A stretch of 64,000 nucleotides of DNA from an uncultured Alphaproteobacteria bacterium (GCA_958296285.1 OY282459.1:258367-322366); one strand, 5' to 3'; shown: positions 16,720 through 62,432, numbered from the stretch's first letter. The notes: a model not told the origin generated them from the sequence alone. Program-made: numbers and translations.

Positions 16720-17035
16720 CTCCCGTGAAGGGGGGTGTGGGGGGCGAAGCCCCCCGCGAAAAGGGGGTTCGGGGGAAACCCCCGAATAGTCGGCGGGCGT
16801 GGCGAAACGAAGCGCACGAAGCGCGTAGCGCAAGTGCGCGAGAAAGCCCGCCGACCCCCCTGCTTACAAGAGCTCTTGGCGTTCAGGGGGCGCGTGGGTG
16901 GGTCGCATTTGCTCGCTCACGCTTCGCTCCGCTCGCAAATGCTTTTTTCCCACCCACCCACGCGTTTCGGGGGGATTCCCCCCGACCCCCCCCTTCTTCG
17001 CGGGGGGCGTTCCGCCCCCCACACCCCCCTTCACT
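16720..17035. repeat. palindromic G6/C6-run repeat element, copy 1 (forward orientation)
   Basis: Left arm GTGAAGGGGGGTGTGGGGGGCGAAGCCCCCC..GGGGGAAACCCCC. Core TAGTCGGCGGGCGTGGCGAAACGAAGC...GAGCTCTTG...GCGCGTGGGTGGGTCGCATTTGC...GCAAATGCTTTTTTCCCACCCACCCACGCG. Right arm is the inverted complement of the left. Intergenic. Confidence 0.85.
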
Positions 17036-17051
17036 GGAGCGCCGCCCCCCT

Positions 17052-18650
17052 CTACGCAAAACCATGCTCCGTCTTATCCCAATAATGCGGATCACGGAAA
17101 AACTGCCAAAAAGCCCGAAACACCGCCACCGCCGACAAAATCCAATAAAACGGCATGGAAAAACTCTCGCGCCACAAAACACAACCCCGCGAGCCGCTCG
17201 CCAAAAGCGCCGCCCCTATCGCCGCCCCATAACCCAAAACCCCCGCCAACAAATTAAAGAAAAGCAAAGACCCCATCCATGACGCGCCAACATGAACCTC
17301 CAAAACCCACAAAAACGCCGTCAAAGGCCAAAAAAGACCATGCGCAAGAATGTTCACGACATAAACCGGAATCAAAAGATGCAGATAAAAACGCGCCGCC
17401 CATGAAACAGGCAAACCCCGGCGAGGCTGCCGCATGGCGGAAGCATAGCTCTGCATCCATCCTTTGATCCAACGCGAGCGCTGTCTTATCCATGAGCCGA
17501 GCGCGCCGTTCGCCTCCTCCCGCGTCTCCGATTCAAAACACGCCGCGCGAAAGCCATGACGCGCCAACCGCAAACCCAATTCGGCGTCTTCAGTCACATT
17601 GTAAGAATCCCAGCCATGCATCGCCCGCAGAGCCTCTATGCGGAAATGATTGGACGTCCCGCCCAACAAAATCGGCAAGCCCAGCGAAGAGGCGAAAGGC
17701 AGAAAAAAACGAAAATGCATCAGATATTCCAACGCGAACTGCCGCGTCAGCCATGTCGCGCCCCCATTGAAAAAAGAAAGATGCGCCTGAAGCGCCACAA
17801 CATCAGCAGGAAGATGACGGAAATGCGCCGCCGCTTTCCGCAACTGCCGCGGATCAGGAATGTCTTCGGCGTCATAGATCGTGATCAAATCGCCGCGCGC
17901 GAAAAGGAGACCATAATTGCAAGCCTTCGGCTTCGTCTGAACTTCATGAGACGGCACGATCAGAATATGAAAGCGCTTGTCCAGCGCCTCTCCTCGGACG
18001 GCTTGGATCGTCTCGGCATCCTCCTCTTCCAGCAGGAGTTTGATGTCCAGCTTATGGCGGGGATAGTCTATGCGCTTCAGCGCGCGAATGAGATTGGGCA
18101 GGACGCGAGTCTCGCGGAAGAGGGGAACGAGAATCGTATAGACAGGAAGCGCCTCGTCTTTAAGGGGCGGCGCCGGCGGCGCGAAGCCTCGCCGCCGCCT
18201 CTTCTCTCCGAAGACAGACCACAGAACGAGACCCTGCCGAAAGAGAATCCCCAAAAGACTCACCGTCCCAATGGCGAGGTTCAAAAAGATGAAAGATGTT
18301 TTCGGCGACAGAAGCGCTCCGACAAAGCAGCAGAGAAGAAGAATCATCGCGCCGCCGAAAATTTTCCTCACCGGCAGATGCGCCGCCGACGAGGGCGGGT
18401 CTTCTTCCGCCAAGCCCCGCACCGCCCGCGACAGCAGAGAGGCGCGGCAATGGCGCTCTATCGTCTGATAGAGCGAGGCGCGATCTATCGGAACGATTCT
18501 GCCATGTTGGACGCCCCGCTTTTTCATCTCGGCGGCGGCGAGAGACGGATCGCAAGCGGCGTAGTCCATTCTCTTCGGCGCGTCTTTGGCGCGCCCTATC
18601 GGCATGGCTTCGGCGGCGAGATAGAAGGAGAAATTTTCTGTCTCCAACAT
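17052..18650 (-). CDS. glycosyltransferase family 2 membrane protein (processive-synthase-like: N-terminal TM, GT2 domain, C-terminal multi-TM)
   Basis: GT-A DxD region (ITIYDAEDIPD) and QxxRW-like segment (RQRSRWIKGW), flanked by TM helices. 532 aa. Confidence 0.75.
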   Translation of the reverse strand: MLETENFSFYLAAEAMPIGRAKDAPKRMDYAACDPSLAAAEMKKRGVQHGRIVPIDRASLYQTIERHCRASLLSRAVRGLAEEDPPSSAAHLPVRKIFGGAMILLLCCFVGALLSPKTSFIFLNLAIGTVSLLGILFRQGLVLWSVFGEKRRRRGFAPPAPPLKDEALPVYTILVPLFRETRVLPNLIRALKRIDYPRHKLDIKLLLEEEDAETIQAVRGEALDKRFHILIVPSHEVQTKPKACNYGLLFARGDLITIYDAEDIPDPRQLRKAAAHFRHLPADVVALQAHLSFFNGGATWLTRQFALEYLMHFRFFLPFASSLGLPILLGGTSNHFRIEALRAMHGWDSYNVTEDAELGLRLARHGFRAACFESETREEANGALGSWIRQRSRWIKGWMQSYASAMRQPRRGLPVSWAARFYLHLLIPVYVVNILAHGLFWPLTAFLWVLEVHVGASWMGSLLFFNLLAGVLGYGAAIGAALLASGSRGCVLWRESFSMPFYWILSAVAVFRAFWQFFRDPHYWDKTEHGFA

Positions 18651-18734
18651 AAGCGTCCTCCCCGAATCGCTTAGAGGTTGGAGAATTATACCTATATCTA
18701 GCTGTTTTTCCGAAAAATCGCCTAGATATGGATT

Positions 18735-19607
18735 TTATCTTTTGGCGAAGAGGAGACGTGTCAGGAAGGGGAGTTGGAGGATCCAGAGGAGGCGGGTTGT
18801 GTCGGCGGGTTTGCAGGGCGGGAGTCCGAGCGTCAGCGTTTTTTGGGGTTTGTCGGTGTAGGTTCGGAAGATTCTGTCCCAGAGGGAGAGGATGAAGCCG
18901 AAATTTGTGTCGCGCTCGCCTTGGCGGATGGAGTGGTGCGTGCGGTGCATATCGGGCGTGACGAGGATGGCGCGGATGTATTTTTCGTAAGGCTTTTTGA
19001 TGGAGGCGTTGGCGTGGTTGAAGATCGCCATGCTGGAGAGCAGGATTTCAAAGATCATGACGCCGTAGGCGGCGGCGCCCAGCGCGTAGACGGCTGTGAT
19101 TTTGATTCCCATGCTGAGGAGGATTTCTATTGGGTGGAATCGCAGCGCGCTGGATGCGTCTATATCGGGGTCTGTGTGGTGGGCGGCGTGGATTCGCCAG
19201 AGCGCGGGGATTTTATGGAGGAGGGCGTGTTGGGCGTAGATGAGGAGGTCTAGGGCGAGGATTGTGATGAGGATGGAGAGGGCGTGGGGGAGTTTGGTTT
19301 GGTTGAGGAGTCCGATGGTGTTTTGTTGGGCGTGGATGGCGGTTTCTAGGGCGAGGATTGGGACGAGGAGTCGGAGGAGGATCATGTTGCAGAAGCCGAG
19401 TCCGAGGTTGACGGCGAGGCGTTTTTTGAGATTGAGGATGAGGGCTCTTGCTGGGGCGTGGTGTTCCCAGAGCATGATGATTGCGAGGGTTATGATGAAG
19501 ATGGCGCTTCGGATGATGGGTTCATATTCGGTCATGGGGCATTTTATATTTGTGAAAGCTCCAAAAGAAAGGGGGGTTTGGGGGGCTAGCCCCCCAAAAA
19601 AAACCAA
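18735..19607 (-). CDS. sterol desaturase / fatty-acid hydroxylase superfamily membrane protein
   Basis: His boxes HAAHHTD and HRTHHS with multiple TM helices. 290 aa. Confidence 0.8.
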   Translation of the reverse strand: MVFFGGLAPQTPLSFGAFTNIKCPMTEYEPIIRSAIFIITLAIIMLWEHHAPARALILNLKKRLAVNLGLGFCNMILLRLLVPILALETAIHAQQNTIGLLNQTKLPHALSILITILALDLLIYAQHALLHKIPALWRIHAAHHTDPDIDASSALRFHPIEILLSMGIKITAVYALGAAAYGVMIFEILLSSMAIFNHANASIKKPYEKYIRAILVTPDMHRTHHSIRQGERDTNFGFILSLWDRIFRTYTDKPQKTLTLGLPPCKPADTTRLLWILQLPFLTRLLFAKR

Positions 19608-19885
19608 GCGGGCGAAGCCCGCTATAGTCGGCGGGCGTGGCGAAACGAAGCGGGCGAAGCCGCAGGCAAGCCCGCGAGAAAGCCCGCCGACCCCCCTGCT
19701 TACAAGAGCTCTTGCGAGCAGGGGCGGTTGGGGGGTGGGTCGCTTTTCCTCGCTGCGCTACGCCACGAGTGGCTACGCTTGCTCGGAAAAGCTTTTTTCC
19801 CACCCCACCCCCCAACCGTTTCGGGGGGGATTCCCCCCGATCCCCCCTTCTTTCTTGGGGGGCAAGCCCCCCCAAACCCCCCTTA
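19566..19885. repeat. palindromic G6/C6-run repeat element, copy 2 (forward)
   Basis: Same family as copy 1, with the ACCAAGCGGGCGAAGCCCGCT module variant at the left. Intergenic between the desaturase and pyrD. Confidence 0.85.
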
Positions 19886-19923
19886 ACGAAAGCAGCCTAA
19901 TCTGCTAACCCTCCCAAGATAAA

Positions 19924-21123
19924 ATGAACCCTCTCCTCATACATTGCGGCTTCCGCCTCCTCTCGCCAGCGCTCTCGCGCATGAACCCCGAAACCGCCCA
20001 TAAACTCACAATCCAAATCCTAAAACGCCTCCCCCAAAAGACGCCCCAAAACCAAAACCCCTTGAGCCAAAAACTCCTCAATCTGACCTTCCCAAACCCT
20101 CTCGGCATCGCCGCAGGCTTTGACAAAAACGCCGAAACGCTCAACGGAATCTTCCAACTCAACTTCGGCTTCGCCGAAATCGGAACCATCACCCCTAAAC
20201 CCCAAATGGGCAACCCACGCCCCCGAATCTTCCGCCTCCCAAAACATCAAGCCGTCATCAACCGCATGGGCTTCCCCAATGACGGAATGGAAAAAATCCG
20301 CGAGCGCCTCGTCAAAACACAACCCCCCCAATCCATCATCGGCGTCAATATCGGCGCGAATGCCGAAAGCGCCAACATGGAAGACAAAATCGCCGACTAC
20401 GAAAAAACGCTCCACGCCTTCGCCAATCACGCATCCTATATCGCCGTCAATGTCTCCTCGCCCAACACCAAAGGACTGCGAAATCTCCAACGCCCCGACA
20501 ATCTCGCCAAACTCCTCAATCGCCTCAACGCGATACGCCAAAGCCGCGTCCCTCTCCTCCTCAAAATCTCCCCCGATCTGAGCGATCAAGAACTTCAAGA
20601 AATCGCCCGCCTCGCCCTAGAAAAAAAACTGGACGGCATCATCGCCACAAACACGACAATAAAACGCGAAGGACTCGTGGATGGAATCCACGCCGAAGAA
20701 ACGGGCGGACTTTCGGGAAAACCCCTCGCCTCCCTCGCCAATCAGACAATCCGAAAATTTTACCAAATGACCAACGGCGCGATTCCCATCATCGGAGTCG
20801 GCGGAATCGCCTCGGCGGAAGAGGCTTACGAAAAAATCCGCGCCGGCGCGTCTCTTCTCCAAATCTACACCGCGCTCGTCTATGATGGGCCTAGAATCGT
20901 CTCCGCCATCCTTGACGGGCTGGAGGCGCTTCTCAAAAAAGACGGCTATCGCCATATCAGCGAAGCCATCGGCGCGGATCATCGCCCAAAAGGAGAAAAA
21001 GAGAGACGCCGTCATGCAGCCCGCCATCTGCCACAACCCAATATGGCGAGAAAGCCGTCTTGGCGCGCCCGCCGGATCGCGCCCTTTCCATTCTCTCCGC
21101 ATCAGCTTAAAATATTAAAATAA
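19924..21123 (+). CDS. pyrD: dihydroorotate dehydrogenase (quinone), class 2
   Basis: Class-2 DHODH N-terminus (ETAHKLTIQILKRL) and FMN/substrate motifs (GFAEIGTITPKPQMGNPRPRIF..NRMGFPNDG..). Has a ~40-aa basic C-terminal extension beyond the usual end. Confidence 0.9.
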   Translation: MNPLLIHCGFRLLSPALSRMNPETAHKLTIQILKRLPQKTPQNQNPLSQKLLNLTFPNPLGIAAGFDKNAETLNGIFQLNFGFAEIGTITPKPQMGNPRPRIFRLPKHQAVINRMGFPNDGMEKIRERLVKTQPPQSIIGVNIGANAESANMEDKIADYEKTLHAFANHASYIAVNVSSPNTKGLRNLQRPDNLAKLLNRLNAIRQSRVPLLLKISPDLSDQELQEIARLALEKKLDGIIATNTTIKREGLVDGIHAEETGGLSGKPLASLANQTIRKFYQMTNGAIPIIGVGGIASAEEAYEKIRAGASLLQIYTALVYDGPRIVSAILDGLEALLKKDGYRHISEAIGADHRPKGEKERRRHAARHLPQPNMARKPSWRARRIAPFPFSPHQLKILK

Positions 21124-21150
21124 GCTCTGTCTAAAAAGGGGAGGCTCGCT

Positions 21151-22179
21151 ATGTCGTTTCAGAGATTGATGCTCAAATCCTTATTGAGTCTGCCTGATCC
21201 TCTTCTCATTCGGATGTCGGGCGGTCGGCCTCTTGAGATTGACGGACGGCGTTTGGATGCGAAAGCGCAGTTTCTCGCGGCGCAGGCGGCGAACGCGCCG
21301 GCTCTGCACAGTCTCACCCCTCTTGAGGCGCGTCAGGCGACAAGCCTCGCCTTCGCGCTTCTGAACGCGCCGCGCCCAAGCGGCGTGGAGACGCGGGACG
21401 ATAAGATTCCGGGGCCCGGCGGCGATCTTCCTGTCCGCCATTATCGTCCGAAGGGCGCGTCTGGCGCTCTTCCCGCCCTTGTTTATTTTCATATGGGCGG
21501 ATGGGTGATTGGCGATTTGGACAGTTCGGATTCTTTCTGCGCGCTTTTGGCGAAGCGCGGCGGGGCGCATGTGATGTCGGTGGATTATCGTCTCGCGCCC
21601 GAGCATAAATTTCCTGCCGCGATGGAAGATGGAATCGCCGCCTATAAATGGATCGCGCGGAACGCCGCTTCTCTGAAGGTTGACGGCGATCGCGTGGCGG
21701 TTGGCGGCGATTCGGCGGGCGGCGGCATCAGCGCGGTCATTTGTCATGAGGCGAAGAGTCGCGGATATCGGCAGCCCAAGGCGCAGATGTTGATTTATCC
21801 TGCTGTGGATTTGGCGGCTGTCGGCGGCTCTATGGAGAGTTGCAGAGATTGTTATCCTCTGACGAGGGATTTGATGCTTTGGTTTGGCGGGCATTTTTTA
21901 GAGCGGGAGGAGAGTCGCGTGGATGTGATGGCGTCGCCGTTGCGCCGCGAGGATTTTAGCGAGTTGGCGCCGGCGCTTCTCATCACGGCGGGGTTTGATG
22001 TTTTGCGTTCGCAGGGTGAGGCTTATGCGGAGAAGATGCGGGAGGCGGGTGTTTCGGTTCGGTATCGTTGTTATGATTCTCTTGTTCATGGTTTCACGGC
22101 GCAGGCGGGGGTAGTGTCTGCGGCTGAGGCGGCGTGTGAAGGGATTGCGCGGGATTTTGGGAAGATTCTTTCTGAGTAG
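21151..22179 (+). CDS. alpha/beta hydrolase (esterase/lipase, HSL-like)
   Basis: HGGG-type oxyanion motif (HMGGWVIGD) and nucleophile elbow GDSAGGG. Confidence 0.8.
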   Translation: MSFQRLMLKSLLSLPDPLLIRMSGGRPLEIDGRRLDAKAQFLAAQAANAPALHSLTPLEARQATSLAFALLNAPRPSGVETRDDKIPGPGGDLPVRHYRPKGASGALPALVYFHMGGWVIGDLDSSDSFCALLAKRGGAHVMSVDYRLAPEHKFPAAMEDGIAAYKWIARNAASLKVDGDRVAVGGDSAGGGISAVICHEAKSRGYRQPKAQMLIYPAVDLAAVGGSMESCRDCYPLTRDLMLWFGGHFLEREESRVDVMASPLRREDFSELAPALLITAGFDVLRSQGEAYAEKMREAGVSVRYRCYDSLVHGFTAQAGVVSAAEAACEGIARDFGKILSE

Positions 22180-22189
22180 GAGTTTTGCG

Positions 22190-22595
22190 GAAAAGGGGGG
22201 GCGGCGAGCCGCCGCGGGCATCTTTTTCATAGACAGGCATTTTGGATTTGCCCCAGGGGAACTAGTGCATAGAAGCTGAAGGTGAAGGGGGGTCAAGGGG
22301 GGCTTGCCCCCCTTGAGAAAAGGAGGCTCGGGGGAAACCCCCGAATAGTCGGCGGGCGTGGCGAAACGAAGCGAGCGCTAGCGAGCGAGAAAGCCCGCCG
22401 ACCCCCCTGCATCGCGTGAGCTCTTGCGAGCGGGGGGCGCGTGGGTGGGTCGCATTTGCTCGCTCACGCTTCGCTCCGCTCGCAAATGCTTTTTTCCCAC
22501 CCACCCACGCGTTTCGGGGGGGATTCCCCCCCGACCCCCCCCCCTTCTTCGCGGGGGGCTTCGCCCCCCACACCCCCCGTCAGGGAGCTCCCCTG
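22190..22595. repeat. palindromic repeat element, copy 3 (forward; extended variant with ~90-bp 5' module)
   Basis: Core as copy 1. The extra left module GGCGGCGAGCCGCCGCGGGCATCTTTTTCATAGACAGGCATTTTGGATTTGCCCCAGGGGAACTAGTGCATAGAAGCTGAAGG is also present (inverted) at the right end of copy 7. Confidence 0.85.
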
Positions 22596-22622
22596 TTTTT
22601 TGGAGATCCTCTATAATAAACC

Positions 22623-23369
22623 ATGACCCTCGCCCAAATCTTCCAAACAGCCCGAGACTGGATCCTCCCCCCTCATTGCCTCATCTGCGACACAACCATC
22701 CTCACCAACGGATGCCTCTGCGCGCCATGCTGGAAATCTATCCGCTTCATTGACAAACCCCGATGCCCCATCACAGGCGTCCCCTTCGCCCACCCCTGGC
22801 CCGCCCATATGCAAAGCGCCCAAAGCCGCCTCGTCAAACCGCCCTACGATTACGCCCGCGCCGCCATGCTCTACGGATCCGAAAAAAGCCGAATCCTCAT
22901 CGCCCAAATGAAATTCCGCGACCACCCCGAAATCGCCATCCCCGCCGCCCAATGGATCGCGCGCGCCAGCCGCGACATCCTCAACAAAGCCGACCTGCTC
23001 GCCCCCGTCCCCCTCCACCGCCGCCGACTCTTCCAAAGACGCTTCAACCAATCCGCCGAAATCGCCCGCGCTCTTTCCCAAATCAGCCAAATCCCGCATC
23101 TCCCCGACCTCCTGATCCGCGCCCGCCACACCCAGCAGCAGACGGGGCTGAAGCGCCGCGATAGAGAACGCAATGTCGCGCGCGCTTTCATTATCAATCC
23201 CCATCACAAGAAGCGCGTCAAAGGGCGGAGCGTTCTTATCATTGACGATGTGATGACGTCGGGCGCGACAAGCGGCGAATGCGCTCAGACTTTGCGCCGC
23301 GCCGGCGCGGGCGCGATTGGGGTTTTGACTGTGGCGCGGGTTGTTCATCCCCATGAGACGCATCCTTGA
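22623..23369 (+). CDS. comF: ComF-family phosphoribosyltransferase-domain protein
   Basis: N-terminal double Cys pairs (CLICDT...CAPCW). C-terminal PRTase motif VLIIDDVMTSGAT. Confidence 0.8.
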   Translation: MTLAQIFQTARDWILPPHCLICDTTILTNGCLCAPCWKSIRFIDKPRCPITGVPFAHPWPAHMQSAQSRLVKPPYDYARAAMLYGSEKSRILIAQMKFRDHPEIAIPAAQWIARASRDILNKADLLAPVPLHRRRLFQRRFNQSAEIARALSQISQIPHLPDLLIRARHTQQQTGLKRRDRERNVARAFIINPHHKKRVKGRSVLIIDDVMTSGATSGECAQTLRRAGAGAIGVLTVARVVHPHETHP

Positions 23370-23370
23370 G

Positions 23371-23705
23371 CGCATAGAAGCTGAAGGTTAAGGGGGGTTT
23401 GGGGGGCTAGCCCCCCAAAAAAAAACCAAGCGGGCGCAAGCCCGCTATAGTCGGCGGGCGTGGCGAAACGAAGCGGGCGAAGCCGCAGGCAAGCCCGCGA
23501 GAAAGCCCGCCGACCCCCCTTGCAACGCGAGAGCTCTTGGCGTTCAGGGGGCGCGTGGGTGGGTCGCATTTGCTCGTTTCGCGTTGCTTCACTCGCAAAT
23601 GCTTTTTTCCCACCCACCCACGCGCTTTCGGGGGGATTCCCCCCGACCCCCCCCTTTTCTCAAGGGGGGCAAGCCCCCCTTGACCCCCCGTCAGGGAGCT
23701 CCCCT
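23371..23705. repeat. palindromic repeat element, copy 4 (forward)
   Basis: Same family. Starts with GCATAGAAGCTGAAGGTTAAGGGGGG as copy 3. Confidence 0.85.
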
Positions 23706-24485
23706 GTCTTTTGGAGCTTCAAAAAGCCCCTTCCGCGCCGCCATCATATAATTCACATCCATATCCCCAGTCAGACGAAAAAAAGAAAAAAAAGGCACAT
23801 ACATAACACCCGTCTCATCACTCGCCTCCAACCCCCCGCCACGAAAAGCGCGGCGAAGCTCGTCAGGCGTGATGAAACCCTCATAACGATGCGTGCCGCG
23901 AGGAAGCCAGCCCAAAACATACTCCAAGCCAAGAATCGCGAAAAGAAAAGATTTCGGCGTCCTGTTAATCGTCGCCGCGATAAGAAGCCCCGAAGGCGAA
24001 AGCATCGCGCCAAGACGCTTGACCGTCCCCGCCACGTCCGGAAGATGCTCCAAAATCTCCATGATCAAAATCACGTCATAAGAACGCGCCGCCGACCCCT
24101 TCCCCTTCGCCGCCCTCTCCCGATAAAGCGTCTCGTCCGTGCCGACTCGGTAATCTATCTTTAAGCCCTGAGAAACAGCATGGGCTTTGGCGATCTCTAT
24201 CGTCTCTGAACTCGCGTCCAAAGCGGTGACCCTAGCGCCCATCCGCGCCAACGGCTCGCTCAAAAGACCGCCGCCGCAGCCCATATCCAAAAAACGAAGC
24301 GAAGCGAAAGACTGCCCGCGCCCTCCCAAGCCAAAATGCGCCGCGACAAGCCTCTCAATATAAGAAAGGCGAAGCGGATTAAGCCGATGGAGCATCGCGA
24401 AAGGCCCCTCCCTGTCCCACCATCTCTGGGCAAGAGCGGAGAAATGCGCGATCTCTTCTTCTTCTCTGGCGGTCGGCGGATTCAT
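23691..24485 (-). CDS. ubiG: bifunctional 3-demethylubiquinol 3-O-methyltransferase / 2-polyprenyl-6-hydroxyphenol methylase
   Basis: Class I SAM-MTase motif LDMGCGGGLLSEPLARMGARVTALDAS and UbiG-like flanking sequence. The start is most likely MNPPTA (24485). Divergent from lysC as in many alphaproteobacteria. Confidence 0.8.
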   Translation of the reverse strand: MNPPTAREEEEIAHFSALAQRWWDREGPFAMLHRLNPLRLSYIERLVAAHFGLGGRGQSFASLRFLDMGCGGGLLSEPLARMGARVTALDASSETIEIAKAHAVSQGLKIDYRVGTDETLYRERAAKGKGSAARSYDVILIMEILEHLPDVAGTVKRLGAMLSPSGLLIAATINRTPKSFLFAILGLEYVLGWLPRGTHRYEGFITPDELRRAFRGGGLEASDETGVMYVPFFSFFRLTGDMDVNYMMAARKGLFEAPKDRGAP

Positions 24486-24568
24486 GATTCTTGAACCAAG
24501 TCTATCGCGCCGCGCCCCCTTTGAGAAGAGCTCTGCGCCGCCGCCCGTCTGATGATACACTCCGCGCC

Positions 24569-25834: not shown

Positions 25835-25852
25835 CCCGCCCTTGCGCCCCCG

Positions 25853-28120: not shown

Positions 28121-28136
28121 AATCTCTTGAAGAAAC

Positions 28137-29300: not shown

Positions 29301-29307
29301 CGTGGAG

Positions 29308-30384: not shown

Positions 30385-30695
30385 GCTCCCGTGAAGGGGG
30401 GTTTGGGGGGCTAGCCCCCCAAGAAAGGGGGGGTCGGGGGGAATCCCCCCCGAAAGCGCGTGGGTGGGGTGGGGGAAAAGCATTTGCGAAGCGAGAGTAG
30501 CGAGCGAGCAAATGCGACCCCACCCACGCGCCCCCTGCTAGAAGAGCTCTTGCGATGCAGGGGGGTCGGCGGGCTTTCTCGCGGGCTTGCCTGCGGCTTC
30601 GCCCGCTTCGTTTCGCCACGCCCGCCGACTTTTCGGGGGTTTCCCCCGAACCCCCTTTTTTCAAGGGGGGCAAGCCCCCCTTGACCCCCCTTTAT
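30385..30695. repeat. palindromic repeat element, copy 5 (reverse orientation)
   Basis: Same family in inverted orientation (GCGTGGGTGGG... precedes ...GCTTCGTTTCGCCACGCCCGCCGACT). Intergenic prfA/prmC. Confidence 0.85.
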
Positions 30696-30724
30696 CGGAG
30701 CCAAGAAACCGATACACTGCCCAA

Positions 30725-34907: not shown

Positions 34908-35215
34908 AAAAAGGGGGGTGTGGGGGGCGAAGCCCCCCACGAAGAAGGGGGGGATCGGGGGGGAATCCCCCCCGAAAACGCGTGGGTGGGTGGGAAAAGA
35001 GCTTTTCCGAGCAAGCGCAGCGCAGCGAGGAAAAGCGACCCACCCACGCGCCCCCTGAACGCCAAGAGCTCTCGTAGCAGGGGGGTCGGCGGGCTTTCTC
35101 GCAGGCTCGCGCTACGCGCTTCGCCTGCTTCGTTTCGCCACGCCCGCCGACTTTTCGGGGGTTTCCCCCGAACCCCCTTTTCTTGGGGGAACTTCGTTCC
35201 CCCAAACCCCCTTTT
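34907..35215. repeat. palindromic repeat element, copy 6 (reverse)
   Basis: Same family. Intergenic clpB/M23 peptidase. Confidence 0.85.
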
Positions 35216-41194: not shown

Positions 41195-41337
41195 GGTGTT
41201 TAGGATTTTATCATGGATTTATGTTTAGGCGGGTTTGGGTTCTTTTGGTTTTGGTAGTCGTGATGGGGGTTATTCTTGTCGCGGGTTTTGTTGTTGTGGT
41301 TGTGGAGATTGTGTCGCGGGCTTGGGCGCTGTGGAGT

Positions 41338-41730
41338 TAAGAAAGGGGGGTGTGGGGGGCGAAGCCCCCCGCGAAGAAGGGGGGATCGGGGGGAATCCCC
41401 CCCGAAAGCGCGTGGGTGGGGTGGGGAAAAAGCATTTGCGAGTGAAGCAACGCGAAACGAGCAAATGCGACCCACCCACGCGCCCCCTGCTAGAAGAGCT
41501 CTTGTAAGCAGGGGGGTCGGCGGGCTTTCTCGCAGGCTCGCGCTACGCGCTTCGCCTGCTTCGTTTCGCCACGCCCGCCGACCGCAGCGGGCTTCGCCCG
41601 CTTGGTTTTTTTGGGGGGCTAGCCCCCCAAACCCCCCTTCACCTTCAGCTTCTATGCCCTAGTTCCCCTGCGGCAAATCCAAAATGCCTATCCATGCAAA
41701 AAATGCCCGCGGCGGCTCGCCGCCGCGCTC
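41338..41730. repeat. palindromic repeat element, copy 7 (reverse; extended variant with the ~90-bp module at its right end)
   Basis: Core 41338-41648, then the inverted GGCATTTTGGATTTGCC...GCCGCCGCG module to ~41730. Immediately upstream of tRNA-Glu. Confidence 0.85.
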
Positions 41731-41776
41731 CCTTGATTCCCAAACCTAACCCCCCTATAAACCCCAAACACGTCCC

Positions 41777-49722: not shown

Positions 49723-49831
49723 GGATAACCCGAATCACTTCTCTTTCTGAGAAAAAGCTTTGCGGAAAAGAGCGAAGGGGGTCAAGATGTTTTTGCGTCC
49801 ATCAAGCCAAAGAAGCCGAAGGCGAAAGATT

Positions 49832-50992: not shown

Positions 50993-51693
50993 CGCAACCG
51001 CGAGATTCGGATTTTCGGAAGGATGACAGCCAAGTGCGCTTCCCGATGACGGCGCATGACGTCCGCAAAGCCTATCGGCGCTGGGCGCCTTTTTACGATT
51101 TTCTTTTCTCGCCCTTCGTGCTGCGGATGACGCATCATCAGGTGGCGAATCATGTGAATGGGGGGGCTGGCTCTGTTTTGGAGGTCGGCGTGGGGACGGG
51201 CTTCGCGCTTCCTCTTTACGAGACTCATTTGACGATCACCGGCGTGGATCTCTCGCCTGAGATGCTGGCGCGGGCGCGCCGCCGCGTGGAGAAGCGGGGG
51301 CTTGGCCACATTCATGAGCTTGCCGAGATGGACGCGACCGAACTTGCCTATCCCGACGGTCATTTTGACATGGTGGTGGCGGTGCATGTGATGTCGGTGG
51401 TTCCTGATCCCTGCCGCGTTTTTCGGGAGTTGGAGCGGGTCTGCAAGCCTGGGGGCGAGGTGATCATCGTCAATCATTTTCAGAGGGAGAAGCGCGATGT
51501 GATCGGCTTTATGGAGCGGGCGATCGCGCCTTTGTCGCGTTATTTGGGCTGGCATCCTGACATGCCGATCGCGATTTTCAACAAGCCTGGGCAGCTTTTG
51601 CTGTTGAAGGAGAAGCGGACGTTGAAACCTTTTGGTCTTTTCACGATGCTGCTTTTCAAGAAGCCTCTGTCGGCGGTTGGCGCGGCGGAGTAG
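50989..51693 (+). CDS. class I SAM-dependent methyltransferase (small, PmtA-like)
   Basis: SAM motif VLEVGVGTGFALP and motif II DMVVAVHVM. 4-nt overlap with mnmA. The stop overlaps the tRNA-Met 5' end by ~10 nt. Confidence 0.7.
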   Translation: MTQPRDSDFRKDDSQVRFPMTAHDVRKAYRRWAPFYDFLFSPFVLRMTHHQVANHVNGGAGSVLEVGVGTGFALPLYETHLTITGVDLSPEMLARARRRVEKRGLGHIHELAEMDATELAYPDGHFDMVVAVHVMSVVPDPCRVFRELERVCKPGGEVIIVNHFQREKRDVIGFMERAIAPLSRYLGWHPDMPIAIFNKPGQLLLLKEKRTLKPFGLFTMLLFKKPLSAVGAAE

Positions 51694-51760
51694 CTCAGTT
51701 GGTTAGAGCAGCGGAATCATAATCCGCGTGTCGGGGGTTCGAGTCCCTCCTCCGCTACCA
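51684..51760 (+). tRNA. tRNA-Met (anticodon CAU; elongator Met or tRNA-Ile2(k2C) not distinguishable by eye)
   Basis: GGCGGAGTAGCTCAGTTGGTTAGAGCAGCGGAATCATAATCCGCGTGTCGGGGGTTCGAGTCCCTCCTCCGCTACCA. Anticodon loop ATCATAA. CCA encoded. Confidence 0.85.
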
Positions 51761-51778
51761 GAACGCAATGGAGGCAGC

Positions 51779-52483: not shown

Positions 52484-53178
52484 ATATAAGGAAACACCCG
52501 CCACGGCACGCGCTTCTTATAATCAGCATAACCTTTGAGATTTTTCTCCAAAAATCGCTCCTCATAGCCAATCCGCCAAAGAAACATCGCGCAAAGAACG
52601 CCCATCGTCAGCGAGAAAATCCACTGCTGCACAATCAGCGCCCAGCCCGGAAAAACGATCAGCGCCGCCAAATACATCGGATGGCGAACATGGCGGTAAA
52701 GACCGTCCGAAACGACCCGCTGCCCCTCATGCTTGATCACGACAAGGCTGGAAAAAGCGTTCTGAAACATCGCCGCCGCGAAAATCCCCAATCCCAGCGC
52801 GAAAAGACAAACCCCCAAAAGAAGAGGAACCGTCTCAAAATCGCCGTCCGCCAAATAGGCGGAGGCGTAAAAGCCTCCGTAAAAAACCACGGAGAAAAGG
52901 GCGAGAAAGATTTTATCCCCGAAAGGCTGATCGCCAGAGGCGATCTTCATGCGACTCAACAGATAGTCGGGACGCCAAAAGGCAAGATAGAAAATGAACG
53001 GCGCCGGCAGAATGACCAGCATCACATAGGTGATGAGATAGGGGACATGAAAATCGCCGCCCGCCAAGAAAAAAGGAATGACGCCGTAAAGGATCGCCGC
53101 CATCAGCACCGCGCCCAAAGCCAAAAGAGTGGAGCGAAGATAAGTCATCTTCAACATTATATCCTTTACTCGGGGCAA
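52477..53178 (-). CDS. isoprenylcysteine carboxyl methyltransferase (ICMT/PEMT)-family membrane methyltransferase
   Basis: 5-6 TM helices. C-terminal ICMT-family signature ...RVVSDGLYRHVRHPMYLAALIVFPGWALI...EERFLEKNLKGYADYKKRVP. Lies immediately downstream of, and overlaps, the AIPR gene on the same strand. Confidence 0.7.
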   Translation of the reverse strand: MPRVKDIMLKMTYLRSTLLALGAVLMAAILYGVIPFFLAGGDFHVPYLITYVMLVILPAPFIFYLAFWRPDYLLSRMKIASGDQPFGDKIFLALFSVVFYGGFYASAYLADGDFETVPLLLGVCLFALGLGIFAAAMFQNAFSSLVVIKHEGQRVVSDGLYRHVRHPMYLAALIVFPGWALIVQQWIFSLTMGVLCAMFLWRIGYEERFLEKNLKGYADYKKRVPWRVFPYIY

Positions 53179-55400
53179 GATACAATGCCATCAACAAGGC
53201 TTTTGTGTTGCACGGCATGTTTGGCCCACGCAAACGCCGCAAGATAGTCTGCTCCCTTTTGAAGATTTTGATCCCAAGAATCTATTATTTCAAATACTTG
53301 AATCCGAGTTTTAACGTTATAGACCATTCTCGTCCTTGATGTTGTTTGATGGTAGAGTTCCTTCCAACTGCCACCCGCCAATTGTTCGATTATATTGCAG
53401 AACATAGACCAACTCTTCCCCACCAAATGATTCTCTTCAAATTTTCCATCCTTCACCGCCTCCGAGATGAGTGTGGCATCCATGCTTGTTTTCAATCTCT
53501 GGAGGTCTGTCTTTTCAAGAAGATTCGGAAAAATCCGATACAGGCCTTTCCCGTATTTTTTGAATAAAAGGTATCCCACCATCTCAACGTATATATACAT
53601 GGCTGTATTCTTAACTACTCCAGCCAAATATTCTGATTCTTTCATCAAGAGGGTAGCCTTTTCTTCTGGTGTTATCCTCGTGCTCGTGATCCCCAACTTT
53701 TTTTCCATATGCTTCCGATGGTCCTGGTTGGATGGAGTCAGCTGTTTCGCAGCTTTACTCAGCAAATAAGCAGTTAGCAGAGCTTGGTGCGGGGGAGATT
53801 GAGGCTCAAAGTCCTCCTTGATCCGCCTAGGGTCGTATTTCAATCTATAATCTCCACCTTCCTGAAGGGAATGCTGCTCGGGTCGCCTCTCAAACACGGT
53901 CTTATAGTAGTCATGCGTATCTACAAAAATTCTCTTTTTGTCATGCATAGCCTCGCTAGAAAACCCTATGAACGCTAACCAGGCTTCAGCGACGTGACTA
54001 TTCTCGGCGACCCGATATTTTCTCCTTCTTGCATCGTGAGACGTTTGTATTGCGAAATGCTGTGGTTTCTTCCCTGGCAGAGTGGGCCAGTCCTCGGACT
54101 CTCTGAAAGCTTCCCATGCGAATTCTTTCCTCTCATAAAACCAGCCTTCTTTAGCAAAGTCCTTTTCTAGAGCTTTTTGCTCCTCCTCATTTGATTTAAG
54201 ATTCCGGGGATCCATCACATTCTGAGTGTTGGTAGCAATGATGAGCTCCCCTACATCCTCAACAGCCCCTTTCTCGAATGCTCGCACCAAAACGTAACAT
54301 TCTTTCTCAAAAATCTTCTTCAACTCAGAGCCCATGTCCTTATAGGTTTCGGAAAGTGTTGTGATCGTCTGCAACCCGTTCACGATGCCAGGCTTAACAA
54401 AGGTTGCGCAGCCAGGCTTACCACGATCGGAAGGTTTAGCGGAAACAGACTCAGCAAGAATCGTCAACCCGTTATTCAGCAGGTGAAACTTCTTGATCCC
54501 TTTTTCTGTTTGAATCTGATCCTCTATTTTCTTATTGACCGCCGATTTAGAGATCGCGCAGCGAACATTGTCTTCAAATATACGCTGTCCAAAATCTTCG
54601 TATCCGTTTATGAGGTCATAGGCCTTCGCGAAGAAAACCTTGAACCCCTCATCATCTATCACATCCCCACGGATAGCAACCGTAATCCTATCCCTTTTAT
54701 CGCCGCCTCGGTCACGCCAACCAAAATTTCCTAAAGCCCATTGCGCTTCTAACAGCCTATCAATGCCGAGGATTTTGAACTCAACAGAACATTCAACGCC
54801 ATTTACGGTCAGATTTTTTGAGGACTGTTGAATTTCCCGAAACATTTCTTTTGCTTGGTCAGTTAAACCTGAGCCAGAAAGAATGAGTGAGATATCTATT
54901 TTATAGACGTCTTGGATTTCTCCACCATCCCCACCTTGACGCCTAAATTTTCGCAACTCGGATAATAAAGTCTGCTGAAAGCCCCGAATACTGTGATTCT
55001 GCTCTCTCTTCGCTTTATGAGCTGTATTCAAATAATTGAGAATACTGTTTATATCACCAAGATTTTTACGGTCATGCTTCTCTTTCCAGATATCCAAAAT
55101 ATCCGCGTCTCGCCCTTTGCATTGAAAAATCTCCACCTTTCCAGGCTTAAAAGCATAGAAATCAATGCCTCTATCACCTGGGCCGTCGGACATATCGGAA
55201 TTGTCAGCACTTTCTCTATCGTCATAGCCAAGGCACTCTAGCGCGACAATTTTAAAGGCTTCTGGATATGAGAGATCGTCCGTATTCATTGCTTCACGGA
55301 TTCTCTCCGAGAGCTCCTGCAATAGATTGCTGCGCTGGTTTTCAGGAAAAGCGCTGTTTCTGTTGGCGTGTCCTTTGCTCAACTTAACCTCCTCTGACAA
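53166..55400 (-). CDS. AIPR-family (abortive-infection phage-resistance-like) protein, 744 aa
   Basis: Contains the AIPR hallmark NGxQT twice (LLNNGLTIL and GIVNGLQTITTL). Large, Lys/Glu-rich. GC ~42%. Low-GC islet next to tRNA-Met. Confidence 0.65.
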   Translation of the reverse strand: MSEEVKLSKGHANRNSAFPENQRSNLLQELSERIREAMNTDDLSYPEAFKIVALECLGYDDRESADNSDMSDGPGDRGIDFYAFKPGKVEIFQCKGRDADILDIWKEKHDRKNLGDINSILNYLNTAHKAKREQNHSIRGFQQTLLSELRKFRRQGGDGGEIQDVYKIDISLILSGSGLTDQAKEMFREIQQSSKNLTVNGVECSVEFKILGIDRLLEAQWALGNFGWRDRGGDKRDRITVAIRGDVIDDEGFKVFFAKAYDLINGYEDFGQRIFEDNVRCAISKSAVNKKIEDQIQTEKGIKKFHLLNNGLTILAESVSAKPSDRGKPGCATFVKPGIVNGLQTITTLSETYKDMGSELKKIFEKECYVLVRAFEKGAVEDVGELIIATNTQNVMDPRNLKSNEEEQKALEKDFAKEGWFYERKEFAWEAFRESEDWPTLPGKKPQHFAIQTSHDARRRKYRVAENSHVAEAWLAFIGFSSEAMHDKKRIFVDTHDYYKTVFERRPEQHSLQEGGDYRLKYDPRRIKEDFEPQSPPHQALLTAYLLSKAAKQLTPSNQDHRKHMEKKLGITSTRITPEEKATLLMKESEYLAGVVKNTAMYIYVEMVGYLLFKKYGKGLYRIFPNLLEKTDLQRLKTSMDATLISEAVKDGKFEENHLVGKSWSMFCNIIEQLAGGSWKELYHQTTSRTRMVYNVKTRIQVFEIIDSWDQNLQKGADYLAAFAWAKHAVQHKSLVDGIVSCPE

Positions 55401-55431
55401 TTGTCCTGCTGTCCAAAATTGTAAAGTTGCG

Positions 55432-56520: not shown

Positions 56521-56543
56521 AAGACAGGGTTTGATGACGAGAA

Positions 56544-57467: not shown

Positions 57468-57712
57468 GTGTCGTCTTTTCGCACGAAGGTGACGGCGTAG
57501 TGGATTCGTCCTTCTAGGAGGGGTTTGGGTTCGCCGAGTCCGTCGGTCAGGAAGAATTTGCGCGGCGTCACGCGCCCTTCGAGGCGGTAGCCGCGCTCGT
57601 GCATTTTGCGGCGATGGAATTCCATCGCGGCGGGCGTGAAATCGGTCGAGAGGACTGTGATTCTTTCGGGGAGCGCGGTTTGGCTTTTGTCGTTTTTGGT
57701 TTTGTCGTTCAT
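57464..57712 (-). CDS. small hypothetical protein (82 aa)
   Basis: ATGA-type overlaps with both neighbours indicate translational coupling inside the msrA operon. No recognisable motif. Confidence 0.4.
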   Translation of the reverse strand: MNDKTKNDKSQTALPERITVLSTDFTPAAMEFHRRKMHERGYRLEGRVTPRKFFLTDGLGEPKPLLEGRIHYAVTFVRKDDT

Positions 57713-58203
57713 GGCGCTTCTCTCGCGCGGAAGAGGCGGGCTGTGTGTTTTTCTTCGTAATGTTGGTGGTAGTCTTCGGCGCGCCAGAATTGGGTTTTTG
57801 GTTGGATTTCTGTCGCGATGGGTTTTTGGAGGCGTCCGGAGTTTTGGAGCGCCGTCAGGGATTCGCGCGCCAGTTTATTTTGTTCTTCGGAGTGGGTGAA
57901 GATGGCGCTTCTATATTGGGTTCCGATGTTGGGGCCTTGTTTATTTTTTTGGGTTGGGTCGTGGCATGTCCAGAAAGTTTGGAGGAGGGTTTGGTAGGAG
58001 ATGGTTTGGGGGTCAAAGATGATGTGGATGGTTTCGGCGTGGCCTGTTTGTCCTGTGCAGACTTGTTCGTAGGAGGGGTTTGGGGTTGTTCCGCCTGTGT
58101 ATCCGACTTCGGTTTTGAGGATGCCTGGGATTTTGGCGAAGATGCTTTGGACTTGCCAGAAGCATCCTGCGGCGAAGCTGGCGTGTTGGGTTTGGTTGGT
58201 CAT
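57709..58203 (-). CDS. msrA: peptide-methionine (S)-S-oxide reductase MsrA
   Basis: Active-site GCFWQ (FAAGCFWQVQSIF) and downstream GYTGG..YEQVCTGQTGHAE. The start is taken at MTNQTQ (58203); the upstream ORF part is repeat sequence. Confidence 0.85.
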   Translation of the reverse strand: MTNQTQHASFAAGCFWQVQSIFAKIPGILKTEVGYTGGTTPNPSYEQVCTGQTGHAETIHIIFDPQTISYQTLLQTFWTCHDPTQKNKQGPNIGTQYRSAIFTHSEEQNKLARESLTALQNSGRLQKPIATEIQPKTQFWRAEDYHQHYEEKHTARLFRAREAP

Positions 58204-58213
58204 GGGGGGATTA

Positions 58214-58552
58214 TAGCATAGAAGTTTTGGTTTGGTTTGCTCCCGTGAAGGGGGGTCAAGGGGGGCTTGCCCCCCTTGAAAAAAGGGGGGATCGGGGGGA
58301 ATCCCCCCCGAAAGCGCGTGGGTGGGGTGGGGAAAAAGCATTTGCGAAGCGAGGTGAGCCGAGCGAGCAAATGCGACCCCACCCACGCGCCCCCTGCTCG
58401 CAAGATCTCTTGGAGGGGGGTCGGCGGGCTTTCTCGCGGGCTTGCCTACGGCTTCGCCCGCTTCGTTTCGCCACGCCCGCCGACCTTTCGGGGGTTTCCC
58501 CCGAACCCCCTTTTTTCTTGGGGGGCTAGCCCCCCAAACCCCCCTTCTTTTG
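58214..58552. repeat. palindromic repeat element, copy 8 (reverse)
   Basis: Same family. Begins with a truncated GCATAGAAG module. Intergenic msrA/ACAD. Confidence 0.85.
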
Positions 58553-58559
58553 GAGCAAC

Positions 58560-59699: not shown

Positions 59700-59700
59700 G

Positions 59701-60873: not shown

Positions 60874-60902
60874 GCCTCTCCCTCTTCGCTTCTCGGCGGG
60901 GC

Positions 60903-62048
60903 TTATTCGGCGGCGGCGAGGGCGTCCATAGAGAGATAGCGGTCTGACCCGCCATTGACGCCGATAAGATATTTGATGCCTTCTTCGGCGATCTCATCGC
61001 CGATCATCCGATCGCCTTCGCCGTAGAGTTCTTCCACATCCACGTAAGCCGCGTAGTTGGCGGAGGTGCGCTTCGTGATGATTCCGGCTTTGACGAGGGT
61101 CTTGACCAGCACGCGGAAGATGTTGGTGGCGTCCTGCATATCCTCGCGGATTTTGGCGTCCGTCATCGCTTCCATGAAGGCGTCCTGCACCCACTGCCAT
61201 TCCAATCCGAGCGGCTCATAGATGTGTTTTTTCTGCTCGGGGCTTGCCAGATTGTAGAGCAGGATGTGGAAGACTTCCCACGCCCAGTCTTCTATTTTGT
61301 CGCGCTCTTCCGGCGAGATATGGGGGATTGTGCGCTCCGCCCATATTTTGCCGAATTTATGGTGGAAGGCTTCATCGGTCATGACGAGCTGGCAGAGTTT
61401 GACCATGACCGGATCGTATCCGAATTTGTAGAAGGTTGCGAAGGCGCCCATGGCGAGTCCTTCCACCATCATTTGCATGCCGACCAGTTTTTTCCAGACG
61501 AGGGGCGAGGAGACCACATCTTGGAGGAGTCCGCCGAGCGCGTCTCCGATTTTCACAGGCTTGTCCCATCGTCTTTGGACATATTGCGAGAAGGCGGTGA
61601 CGTGTCTTGCTTCTTCGCGGGTTTGGTTGGCGGCGTATTCCTGCGCGCCTGGGTCTTTGAGGATGTGGCAGAGCGAGGCGGAGAGCGAGAGCGCGCCTTG
61701 CTCGCCGTGCAGGATGGAGGAGAAAGACCATCGGGCGTTATTATTGACGAGTTGGATTTTTTGGTCTTCGTTGAGTTTGTCGGCGACGGCGGTTTTCAGT
61801 TCGCCGCTGATTTCGGGGTCTACCAGATAGCCTTTTTTGAGGTCAAAGTCTGGCGAGAAGTCTATGTATTTTTTGTCCAGCGGGTCCCAGAAGTGGTCGT
61901 GGGTTGCGGCGATGATTTTGTCAAAGGCTGAGGATCGTTTGGCGTAGCGATCCACTTCAATCATGGCGGCGAAGTTATCGGGGGCGACGGCTTCGTAGGC
62001 GGCGTCGGCGTTGATTTGGTTTTGGGCGTTTGGGGTTTGGCGTGTCAT
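60903..62048 (-). CDS. ferritin-like diiron-carboxylate protein (AurF/diiron-oxygenase-like)
   Basis: Two ExxH motifs in helical context (EEARHVTAF and DEAFHHKFG) plus upstream Glu residues. 381 aa. Embedded between acyl-CoA dehydrogenase genes. Confidence 0.55.
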   Translation of the reverse strand: MTRQTPNAQNQINADAAYEAVAPDNFAAMIEVDRYAKRSSAFDKIIAATHDHFWDPLDKKYIDFSPDFDLKKGYLVDPEISGELKTAVADKLNEDQKIQLVNNNARWSFSSILHGEQGALSLSASLCHILKDPGAQEYAANQTREEARHVTAFSQYVQRRWDKPVKIGDALGGLLQDVVSSPLVWKKLVGMQMMVEGLAMGAFATFYKFGYDPVMVKLCQLVMTDEAFHHKFGKIWAERTIPHISPEERDKIEDWAWEVFHILLYNLASPEQKKHIYEPLGLEWQWVQDAFMEAMTDAKIREDMQDATNIFRVLVKTLVKAGIITKRTSANYAAYVDVEELYGEGDRMIGDEIAEEGIKYLIGVNGGSDRYLSMDALAAAE

Positions 62049-62127
62049 GGCGGGTCTCTTGGGGTTTGCGGCTTTTGGGATGGGGGGATTTTGGGGGAAT
62101 GGGGGTTAGGAGTCAAGACGCGCTCCA

Positions 62128-62432
62128 AAAAAGGGGGGTCAAGGGGGGCTTGCCCCCCTTGAGAAAGGGGGTTCGGGGGAAACCCCCGAATAGTCGGCGG
62201 GCGTGGCGAAACGAAGCGGGCGAAGCGCGACAGCGCAAGCCCGCGAGAAAGCCCGCCGACCCCCCTCCAAGAGCTCTTCTAGCAGGGGGCGCGTGGGTGG
62301 GTCGCATTTGCTCGCTTCGCGTTGCTTCGCTCGCAAATGCTTTTTTCCCACCCACCCACGCGCTTTCGGGGGGGATTCCCCCCCGATCCCCCTCTTTTTT
62401 TGGGGGGCTAGCCCCCCAAACCCCCCTTTACG
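62128..62432. repeat. palindromic repeat element, copy 9 (forward)
   Basis: Same family. Intergenic diiron gene/ACAD. Confidence 0.85.

Follow-up and report, generated by a model that had tools for sequence, protein, structure and literature searches.

The 64,000-nt stretch analysed here (the window; uncultured Alphaproteobacteria bacterium, GCA_958296285.1 OY282459.1:258367-322366, coordinates counted from its first letter) is an ordinary segment of the chromosome of a small-genome alphaproteobacterium. It encodes PhoH, YbeY, QueG, dCTP deaminase, PyrD, RF-1/PrmC, ClpB, a TonB-dependent receptor, an MMPL protein and acyl-CoA dehydrogenases, together with three tRNAs. Interspersed among these genes are nine copies (c1 to c9) of a hairpin-rich repeat, each 317-412 bp long (~320 bp is typical) and devoid of a credible open reading frame (ORF). 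In related strains the copies change far faster than their flanks, by flips, by exchange of modules and alleles, and by inversion of a block of genes. We think it probable, if by no means assured, that they belong to a family of interspersed, non-coding repeats confined to one lineage, of the miniature inverted-repeat transposable element (MITE) or intergenic-mosaic kind, now evolving mainly by recombination.

Nine copies of one directional element

An earlier note on this DNA had reported nine homologous copies, and all of them exist within a few bases of where it placed them. An invariant 25-mer, GTCGGCGGGCGTGGCGAAACGAAGC, has nine exact occurrences in the window, with no mismatch, and none in 100 shuffles; G6-CNNG-C6 hairpins number 12 against 0.11 expected, and all 12 fall within the nine copies. 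Aligned in a common orientation, the copies show a mean column identity of 78% across ~320 columns. An nhmmer profile built from them scores 293-331 bits per copy in the forward direction and 76-117 bits in reverse, and the element therefore has a polarity; five copies lie in the plus orientation (c1-c4, c9) and four in the minus orientation (c5-c8). Together they occupy 4.9% of the window (~4.7% by the earlier estimate), and with related loci included the DNA read here holds 25 distinct copies. The earlier note had missed the two orientations, the seating of copies at gene 3′ ends and the flipped or recombined versions in other strains, which are described below.

In its plus orientation the element opens with GCTCC-N5-6-AA-G6 and a terminal hairpin, e.g. 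TTTGGGGGGCTAGCCCCCCAAA or TCAAGGGGGGCTTGCCCCCCTTGA; the terminal hairpins are 9-10-bp G6/C6 structures. An A-run and G5 lead to mini-hairpin 1 (GGGGGAAACCCCC, with GCGGGCGAAGCCCGC as an alternative). The directional core of ~190 bp then comprises a long hairpin (H3), a GAGCTC palindrome at the exact centre, and a second long hairpin (H4). H3 consists of GTCGGCGGGC, the invariant loop GTGGCGAAACGAAGC, a variable inner stem-loop, GCGAGAAA and GCCCGCCGAC; a C6...G5 stem surrounding the palindrome AAGAGCTCTT separates it from H4, which runs CGCGTGGGTGGG, GCATTTGC-variable loop-GCAAATGC-T6 and CCCACCCACGCG. The right end is made of mini-hairpin 2 (GGGGGGATTCCCCCC), C5-8, a T-run, the terminal hairpin and C6-TT-N5-6-GGAGC. 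All 25 distinct copies share GTCGGCGGGCGTGGC and AGCCCGCCGAC without any change, while stems and loops vary.

The four shared modules of the earlier description are borne out by this anatomy, as are the variants it listed. The ACCAAGCGGGCGAAGCCCGCT alternative is found in copies 2, 4 and 7, and an extra outer module of ~90 bp, composed of a GC hairpin with a T-run, then GGCATTTTGGATTTGCC, then GCATAGAAGCTGAAGG, extends one end of c3 and c7 outward and is partly present in c4 and c8. One related copy carries the outer module on both ends, giving a ~500-bp form with inverted ends of ~165 nt. A sigma-54-like reading of GGCATTTTGGATTTGCC was dropped because its spacing, judged by eye, is wrong. 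In c3 (22581-22595) and c4 (23692-23706), an inserted 15-nt palindrome, CAGGGAGCTCCCCTG, separates the terminal C6 run from the TTTTGGAG end; the c4 ortholog at locus L001 of a close strain lacks it.

Two structural claims of the earlier note are unsupported or go too far. The element is not an imperfect ~300-bp palindrome: inverted repeats are limited to its outer 45-70 nt, and the core that they surround is asymmetric and directional. G-quadruplex potential at the two ends is non-canonical at best, as the four-G-run arrangement in the copies requires a 16-20-nt central loop holding a competing C-run, and the copies show no enrichment of canonical motifs (1-7-nt loops), containing one of seven such motifs on the plus strand and one of nine on the minus strand. 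A canonical G-quadruplex motif, GGGATGGGGGGATTTTGGGGGAATGGGGG, lies at 62077-62105, just outside c9, and another occurs as a 46-nt G-run tract (40930-40975) inside the 5′ end of the rluD-like ORF (40145-41194, minus strand).

Table 1 Positions, variants and settings of the repeat copies, and the gene block lying between two of them
Feature	Position (nt)	Orientation	Form	Setting
c1	16719-17040	+	full form (end, mini-hairpin, H3, GAGCTC centre, H4, mini-hairpin, end)	11 nt past the stop of a glycosyltransferase (GT2); 106 nt upstream of the ATG of a thiamine-pyrophosphate (TPP) enzyme
c2	19558-19893	+	alternative GCGGGCGAAGCCCGC mini-hairpin; 15-nt insertion in H4 loop	between divergent fatty-acid hydroxylase and pyrD
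c3	22195-22606	+	outer module 22195-22282	15 nt past abhydrolase stop
c4	23372-23717	+		2 nt past comF-like stop; right end within convergent methyltransferase ORF (end 23691)
c5	30385-30701	-		between prfA (3 nt past stop) and prmC (23 nt before ATG)
c6	34902-35222	-	unusual terminal hairpin GGGGGAACTTCGTTCCCCC, retained in all three strains although the interior varies	occupies the whole convergent spacer between clpB and M23-peptidase
c7	41333-41732	-	outer module 41642-41732	between rluD-like gene and tRNA-Glu
c8	core 58239-58556; outer-module remnant 58214-58238	-		3 nt past acyl-CoA dehydrogenase stop; 10 nt from msrA ATG
c9	62122-62437	+		2 nt past acyl-CoA dehydrogenase stop
pyrD-abhydrolase block	19848-22321	none		bounded by c2 and c3; inverted in the 1.72-Mb genome

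Folding and covariation

Folding, a check that the earlier note had proposed, gave z = -9.75 for the single DNA strand and z = -11.5 and -11.3 for the RNA folds of the two strands. Either strand, as DNA or as RNA, adopts a closing stem built from both ends plus 4-5 hairpins, and in all folds it is the outer 45-70-nt inverted repeats that form the closing stem; terminal inverted repeats are a feature of MITEs. A consensus structure of 83 pairs accommodates 16 copies from three strains with standard pairs in 97.2% of cells. Double-sided compensatory changes affect 13 of these pairs and 52 cells, where shuffling yields 15.7 cells and slid controls 2-11. Hairpin pairing is thus preserved via compensatory changes against invariant internal-loop sequence, from which we infer that folded single-stranded DNA (ssDNA) or RNA, or a protein reading the folded form, matters. 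Invariant internal loops beside freely co-varying stems point to a recognition event in which a transposase, recombinase or host protein would act on folded DNA or RNA.

Strong folds, covariation and purine-rich invariant internal loops (GAAAC, GAGAAA) would also be expected of multi-copy structured non-coding RNA genes or cis-regulatory RNAs. We give this explanation hardly any chance, since both strands fold equally well, with compensatory changes that are Watson-Crick on both strands, and since the orientation of the copies with respect to neighbouring genes is random and strain-dependent. Moreover, a scan of six copies (c1-c6) revealed no promoter-like site within them, and even at E = 1 the element had no match in Rfam.

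Empty sites in a distant relative and rapid change between close strains

Window ClpB is ~60% identical to ClpB of diverse Alphaproteobacteria; only three sequences are closer to it, and each of them comes from an ENA metagenome assembly. Syntenic DNA was retrieved from three sources via protein look-ups. The first close strain is represented by a 1.72-Mb ENA contig (ERZ19489113 s55.ptg000057c; loci L001, L004 and L126), referred to below as the 1.72-Mb genome, and the second by a 79-kb contig from another sample (ENA ERZ19489054 contig_7; loci L003 and L127); the flanks of both are 94.5-98.6% identical to the window. The third source is a distant relative (loci L002 and L005) with a ClpB 69% identical and ~70% nucleotide identity. 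About 85 kb of related loci were read, ~5% of the 1.72-Mb genome. In contig_7 the clpB and acyl-CoA dehydrogenase genes are split or frameshifted (L003 10001-12665, L127 4038-9078), which suggests frameshift errors and a lower-quality assembly, so that single-base differences in this contig need caution.

Across 44 kb of syntenic DNA from the distant relative, nhmmer detects no copy and G5/C5 hairpins are absent. In that genome the prfA and prmC genes, which c5 separates in the window, overlap and thereby mark an empty site, and its spacer between the GT2 and TPP-enzyme genes measures 104 nt, versus 440 nt in the window. Because these syntenic sites are empty, the copies are best read as insertions on the branch leading to the host species. 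Among the close strains, every window site compared, as well as two sites past the window end, is filled in each strain that covers it.

Within this fixed set of sites the copies themselves are highly changeable. Orthologous copies are mostly 75-92% identical in their best orientation (one pair, c4 of the window and of L003, reaches 98.5%), and they diverge from one another about as much as paralogues do. Ten of 17 orthologous pairs lie in opposite orientation, and strains differ in orientation at eight of the nine window sites and at one further site. Tabulated module by module, the alleles form a mosaic, with 14 H4-loop alleles among 16 copies. Against its ortholog in the 1.72-Mb genome, c1 keeps its orientation and an identical left half and differs in the H4 loop and right end; c4 is flipped and allele-replaced in L001. 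The H4 of c9 in L127 is the exact reverse complement of the allele in the other two strains, and two strains carry c5 H4 alleles in opposite orientation and 1 nt apart. Flipping or replacement of the interior at c5, c6 and c8 has left the flank-adjacent terminal hairpin allele in place: c8, for instance, is flipped in both other strains and its left terminal hairpin allele stays put. Shortened variants retain H3 only (~215 bp) or H4 only. The module exchange that the earlier note had proposed is therefore strongly supported, and the strain comparison extends it.

Rearrangement also reaches neighbouring genes. In the 1.72-Mb genome the 2.5-kb pyrD-abhydrolase block is inverted, with breakpoints inside c2 on the left and c3 on the right, and the window order is taken as ancestral-like because the distant relative shares it. 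A single crossover at the GAGCTC centre was considered as the cause and dropped. Loss of H4 and a gain of other sequence are also seen at the junction elements of the other genome, so the inversion took more than one event.

Assembly or consensus artefacts in palindromic DNA rich in G/C homopolymers could mimic differences between strains, given that such runs are error-prone and that contig_7 contains split or frameshifted genes. We hold this to be highly improbable as an account of the differences described here, which consist of entire modules replaced and of a 2.5-kb inversion whose genes are intact, not of homopolymer errors. The window, L001 and L003 also differ from one another at different sites. 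Furthermore, we take the hifiasm-style name s55.ptg000057c to denote a long-read assembly, whose reads would by our own reasoning far exceed 320 bp.

Orientation switching as a possible form of regulation

The prevalence of flips raises the possibility of programmed invertible switches, in which a site-specific recombinase would turn the directional core and so bring about genome-wide phase variation in the termination or expression of neighbouring genes. Orientation does vary at nearly all window sites, the same H4 allele has been caught in opposite orientations twice (exactly in c9, within 1 nt in c5), and the asymmetric core combines a one-way hairpin and T6 with a palindrome at the exact centre. 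Such switches nonetheless seem very unlikely to us. Alleles are replaced and modules lost along with the flips, a pattern closer to general recombination than to clean site-specific inversion; no recombinase gene was found in the window or the related loci; and no promoter-like site was seen in c1-c6. By our own reasoning, inverted ends of 45-70 bp suffice for general, RecA-dependent homologous recombination to randomise orientation over 2-3% strain divergence, and a dedicated invertase is not needed. Invertons are alike in having a directional segment between inverted repeats that is found both ways round. They are, however, few, promoter-bearing and served by a nearby or global invertase, whereas the copies here are many and dispersed, flip with allele replacement, lack a promoter-like site (c1-c6) and have no recombinase domain in the window or related loci.

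A further reading would see the copies as dispersed flip-flop elements that invert often in living populations and stochastically toggle the termination or insulation state of gene junctions; the directional core would then act as a one-way hairpin and T-run beside an invariant loop recognised by protein or RNA. We consider this quite improbable. If true, it would amount to genome-wide, repeat-borne phase variation without a local invertase, and flipping within populations would be a new route to stochastic regulation; otherwise, the family is still a useful case of mosaic repeat persistence in small genomes.

Position relative to genes and a possible host role

The copies sit at gene 3′ ends, with gaps to facing 3′ ends of 11, 15, 2, 3, 0, 0, 3 and 2 nt, or with overlap, and with gaps of 10-138 nt to start codons; their orientation is unrelated to the direction of neighbouring genes. 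The earlier statement that all copies are intergenic stands in that they are intergenic or nearly so, and needs amending for two of them. The terminal bases of c6 contain the stop codons of both clpB and the M23-peptidase gene, and c4 overlaps the final 27 nt of a class I methyltransferase ORF, whose last 8-9 codons and stop are encoded by the repeat end. The resulting tail (window 23691-23717; L001 1253-1290) is strain-specific, ending ...LFEAPKDRGAP before the stop in one case and ...LFESPKNGGSRGASPP in the other.

TATAAT-like boxes lie 6-8 nt upstream of the ATG of the comF-like gene (CTCTATAATAAACCATG, 22609-22625), msrA (TGCTATAATCCCCCCATG, 58201-58214) and the fatty-acid hydroxylase gene (ATATAAAATGCCCCATG, 19533-19552), and a promoter-like TTGATT-17-TATAAA precedes tRNA-Glu (41738-41766) just outside the end of c7. 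The close boxes suggest very compact promoters and mRNAs with no leader or a very short one, and this may be why repeats can sit so near gene starts. Copies can also distort gene calls. The longest msrA ORF (57709-58386, minus strand) and the corresponding L126 gene call (9342-10004) extend ~60 codons into c8; as the PMSR domain begins at residue 69, translation probably starts at the ATG at 58203. Spurious ORFs of 100-137 aa occur within other copies, and the family can thus inflate ORF predictions.

Seating of this kind might indicate that the copies are structural elements serving the host, as orientation-independent terminators, insulators, 3′-end mRNA stabilisers or nucleoid-protein binding sites, retained in a compact genome as substitutes for ordinary terminators. 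Every facing gene 3′ end lies within 15 nt of a copy or overlaps one, and a mini-hairpin and T-run point outward at both ends, where transcripts travelling either way would meet them near the exit. A T6 directly follows the H4 inner stem, the GC hairpin and T-run of the outer module come right after the abhydrolase stop (and, in L003, after the clpB stop), and both strands form very stable folds. In a 19.5-kb stretch holding six copies, 53 terminator-like sites were counted, compared to 27.8 in shuffles. Yet the positions of c2, c5 and c7 make a terminator unnecessary or awkward: c2 and c7 are placed between divergent genes, where it would be pointless, and c5 splits prfA from prmC, which overlap in the distant relative. 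That relative copes without copies, and a 320-bp unit with five hairpins goes far beyond what termination needs. We therefore regard a host-serving role as a possible but on balance unlikely explanation; it would account for retention, not for origin or multiplication, and is compatible, as exaptation, with the repeat-family reading that we favour. As a by-product, a terminator or stabiliser role is plausible, since hairpin and T-run motifs face both exits and the copies adjoin stop codons; these motifs could confer orientation-independent termination or 3′-end protection.

Database searches and mode of spread

The earlier note had called the family novel-looking, and we found no catalogued counterpart. 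The 25-mer GTCGGCGGGCGTGGCGAAACGAAGC has no exact match in one genome each of 185,579 species or in JGI metagenomes, and the outer-module pattern has none in the metagenomes; two invariant sequences of the family lack an exact match in public genomes or metagenomes. A scan of the species genomes for the end pattern returned at least 120 stretches, nearly all single matches (Actinomycetes, Rhodobacterales and others). They were rejected as relatives, the best nhmmer hit having E = 4.5e-4 over ~65 nt and no homology extending past the pattern. Searches with blastn against plasmid and phage collections gave no match. At the gathering threshold Rfam recognised only the three tRNAs in the window and at E = 1 nothing relevant; the best matches to the element, in the stretch with c3 and c4, reached 17-22 bits against gathering scores of 39-70.

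Pfam detected no transposase or recombinase domain among the window ORFs scanned, in agreement with the earlier note, and no transposase or recombinase, including Y1 transposase/RAYT, is present among the called genes of the ~85 kb of related loci. Target-site duplications, which the earlier note had proposed to look for, were not found in the flanks of the window copies and several orthologs; the sole possible duplication is an ambiguous palindromic GC inside GCTCC/GGAGC. Neither a conserved flanking tetranucleotide nor any fixed flanking motif was seen at the copies.

These results bear on the possibility that the copies are elements of the REPIN or BIME type served by a single-copy HUH (Y1) transposase (RAYT or IS200/IS605 TnpA). 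The G6/C6 hairpins and the invariant H3 loop would then be recognised on folded ssDNA at the replication fork, and the copies would be inherited vertically over long periods. Absence of target-site duplication, hairpins at both ends and invariant sequence beside variable stems all fit. So does the sharing of all sites across strains, as in the long-persisting, vertically inherited REPIN populations described in abstracts (e.g. 10.1101/2021.07.10.451892), and a REPIN consists, according to PMC3337134, of two inverted repetitive extragenic palindromes (REPs) flanking a spacer. The copies are, however, 3-5 times as long as a REPIN and contain 5-6 distinct hairpins where a REPIN has a single REP in duplicate, the expected flanking tetranucleotide was not seen, and neither the window nor the 85 kb of related loci yielded a Y1 transposase gene. 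Such an assignment therefore appears rather unlikely.

For the repeat family that we favour, the following history seems likely. After the split from the distant relative, the family would have expanded within the spacers of this small alphaproteobacterial genome, and the surviving copies would be those adjoining gene 3′ ends, where promoters stay joined to their genes. The original spread may have depended on a trans-acting enzyme that recognises hairpins or ssDNA, and not on a classical DDE transposase; we lean to an enzyme reading folded single strands in view of the hairpins at the ends, the constancy of the loop sequence and the missing target-site duplications. Subsequent in-place flips of the core probably arise by recombination between one copy's own inverted ends, the outer ends staying with the flank. 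Exchange of module and hairpin alleles probably reflects patchy ectopic gene conversion between copies, with junctions often at G/C runs, and inversion of the gene block would result from recombination between neighbouring copies. The local density of one copy per ~5 kb, extrapolated, suggests ~300 copies in the 1.7-Mb genome.

Several points weigh against this account. Three close strains show no filled/empty polymorphism at 11 sites, so that mobility is not demonstrated; no autonomous partner was found in the window and the related loci, nor any target-site duplication at the flanks inspected; and the contig behind the L003/L127 comparison, with its frameshifted genes, may be of lower quality. 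Compensatory changes could stem from hairpin-templated repair and not from selection, and the perfect conservation of 15-25-nt blocks exceeds what a decaying selfish element needs, which hints at a function or a recognition site.

Relation to known repeat families

The general features of the class (non-coding, multi-copy, intergenic and lineage-specific, with inverted ends) are all present, and the MITE/REP/RPE-type label of the earlier note is a fair one. The family itself is uncatalogued: its class is known, its architecture and dynamics are unusual, and we assign it to no named family. The copies are too long and complex for REPINs, and their inverted ends are unlike IS200/IS605 derivatives, which have subterminal hairpins without terminal inverted repeats (TIRs) and insert 3′ of a fixed tetra- or pentanucleotide; here TIRs are clear and no fixed motif is seen. 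That the elements are far longer than REPs, as the earlier note had stressed, is only part of the picture, since a length of 320-500 bp, although great for a REP, is one that bacterial MITEs can have.

Correia elements (CREE) of Neisseria are 100-155 bp long, with 26-bp ends, a TA duplication and an IHF site, and Siddique et al. 2011 reportedly proposed end-dependent promoter switching for them. They are likewise short, non-coding, bounded by inverted repeats and multi-copy, lie near genes, have no transposase of their own and fall into subtypes with variant ends. The copies here differ in size (320-500 bp), in the length of their ends (45-165 bp), in having 5-6 hairpins and no TA duplication, and in their unrelated sequence and host phylum. 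Excerpts of one report describe Correia elements, bounded by inverted repeats, as mediating chromosomal inversion in gonococcus (PMC3454330).

The mosaic character of the copies recalls another class, as both are variable, intergenic mosaics of palindromic modules. BIMEs of E. coli, like RIMEs and NIMEs, are intergenic mosaics of palindromic units and short motifs at gene 3′ ends, and they influence termination and mRNA stability. The building blocks of BIMEs are REP units of ~35-40 bp that alternate in orientation, and BIMEs contain IHF, gyrase and Pol I binding sites. Compared to these, the modules here are different and larger hairpins enclosed by long inverted ends, and no sequence similarity was found. 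REPIN-RAYT systems share hairpin-forming inverted doublets, lack of target duplication and vertical persistence at orthologous sites, as far as the excerpts of PMC3337134 go, and differ in size and complexity (a 20-40-bp REP versus a 320-500-bp unit), in the conserved 5′ tetranucleotide that is missing here, and in that no RAYT occurs in the DNA read. BOX elements of pneumococcus are modular (boxA-boxB(n)-boxC) like the present family, again on the strength of excerpts (PMC3049150), and both BOX and the QMITEs of Coxiella are non-coding repeats able to extend ORFs, as c4 does (PMC3049150, PMC5896051, in part). Their sequences are unrelated and shorter, and the excerpts of those sources do not mention pervasive in-place flipping between strains.

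The nearest counterparts in behaviour are Correia elements, the BIME/RIME/NIME class, BOX for modularity and REPINs for vertical persistence. The family is unlike all of these in size, number of hairpins, long inverted ends, sequence, host and extent of in-place flipping. It offers a clear natural case in which interspersed palindromic repeats evolve faster and recombine more than any other part of a compact, syntenic genome: the copies flip, swap hairpin modules, give genes their stop codons and short C-terminal tails, and serve as inversion breakpoints.

Other features of the window

A 2.3-kb segment of low GC content (53142-55430; 47-49% versus ~60%) encodes an AIPR (abortive-infection-type) protein (53166-55400, minus strand). 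It is unique to the window: the corresponding point is 28 nt in the 1.72-Mb genome and 173 nt of unrelated sequence in the other contig. The segment appears to be a strain-specific defence-gene indel, ~1.5 kb from tRNA-Met (51684-51760). The 5′ part of the fatty-acid hydroxylase ORF contains three imperfect 46-nt direct repeats of 61-83% identity (19177-19369).

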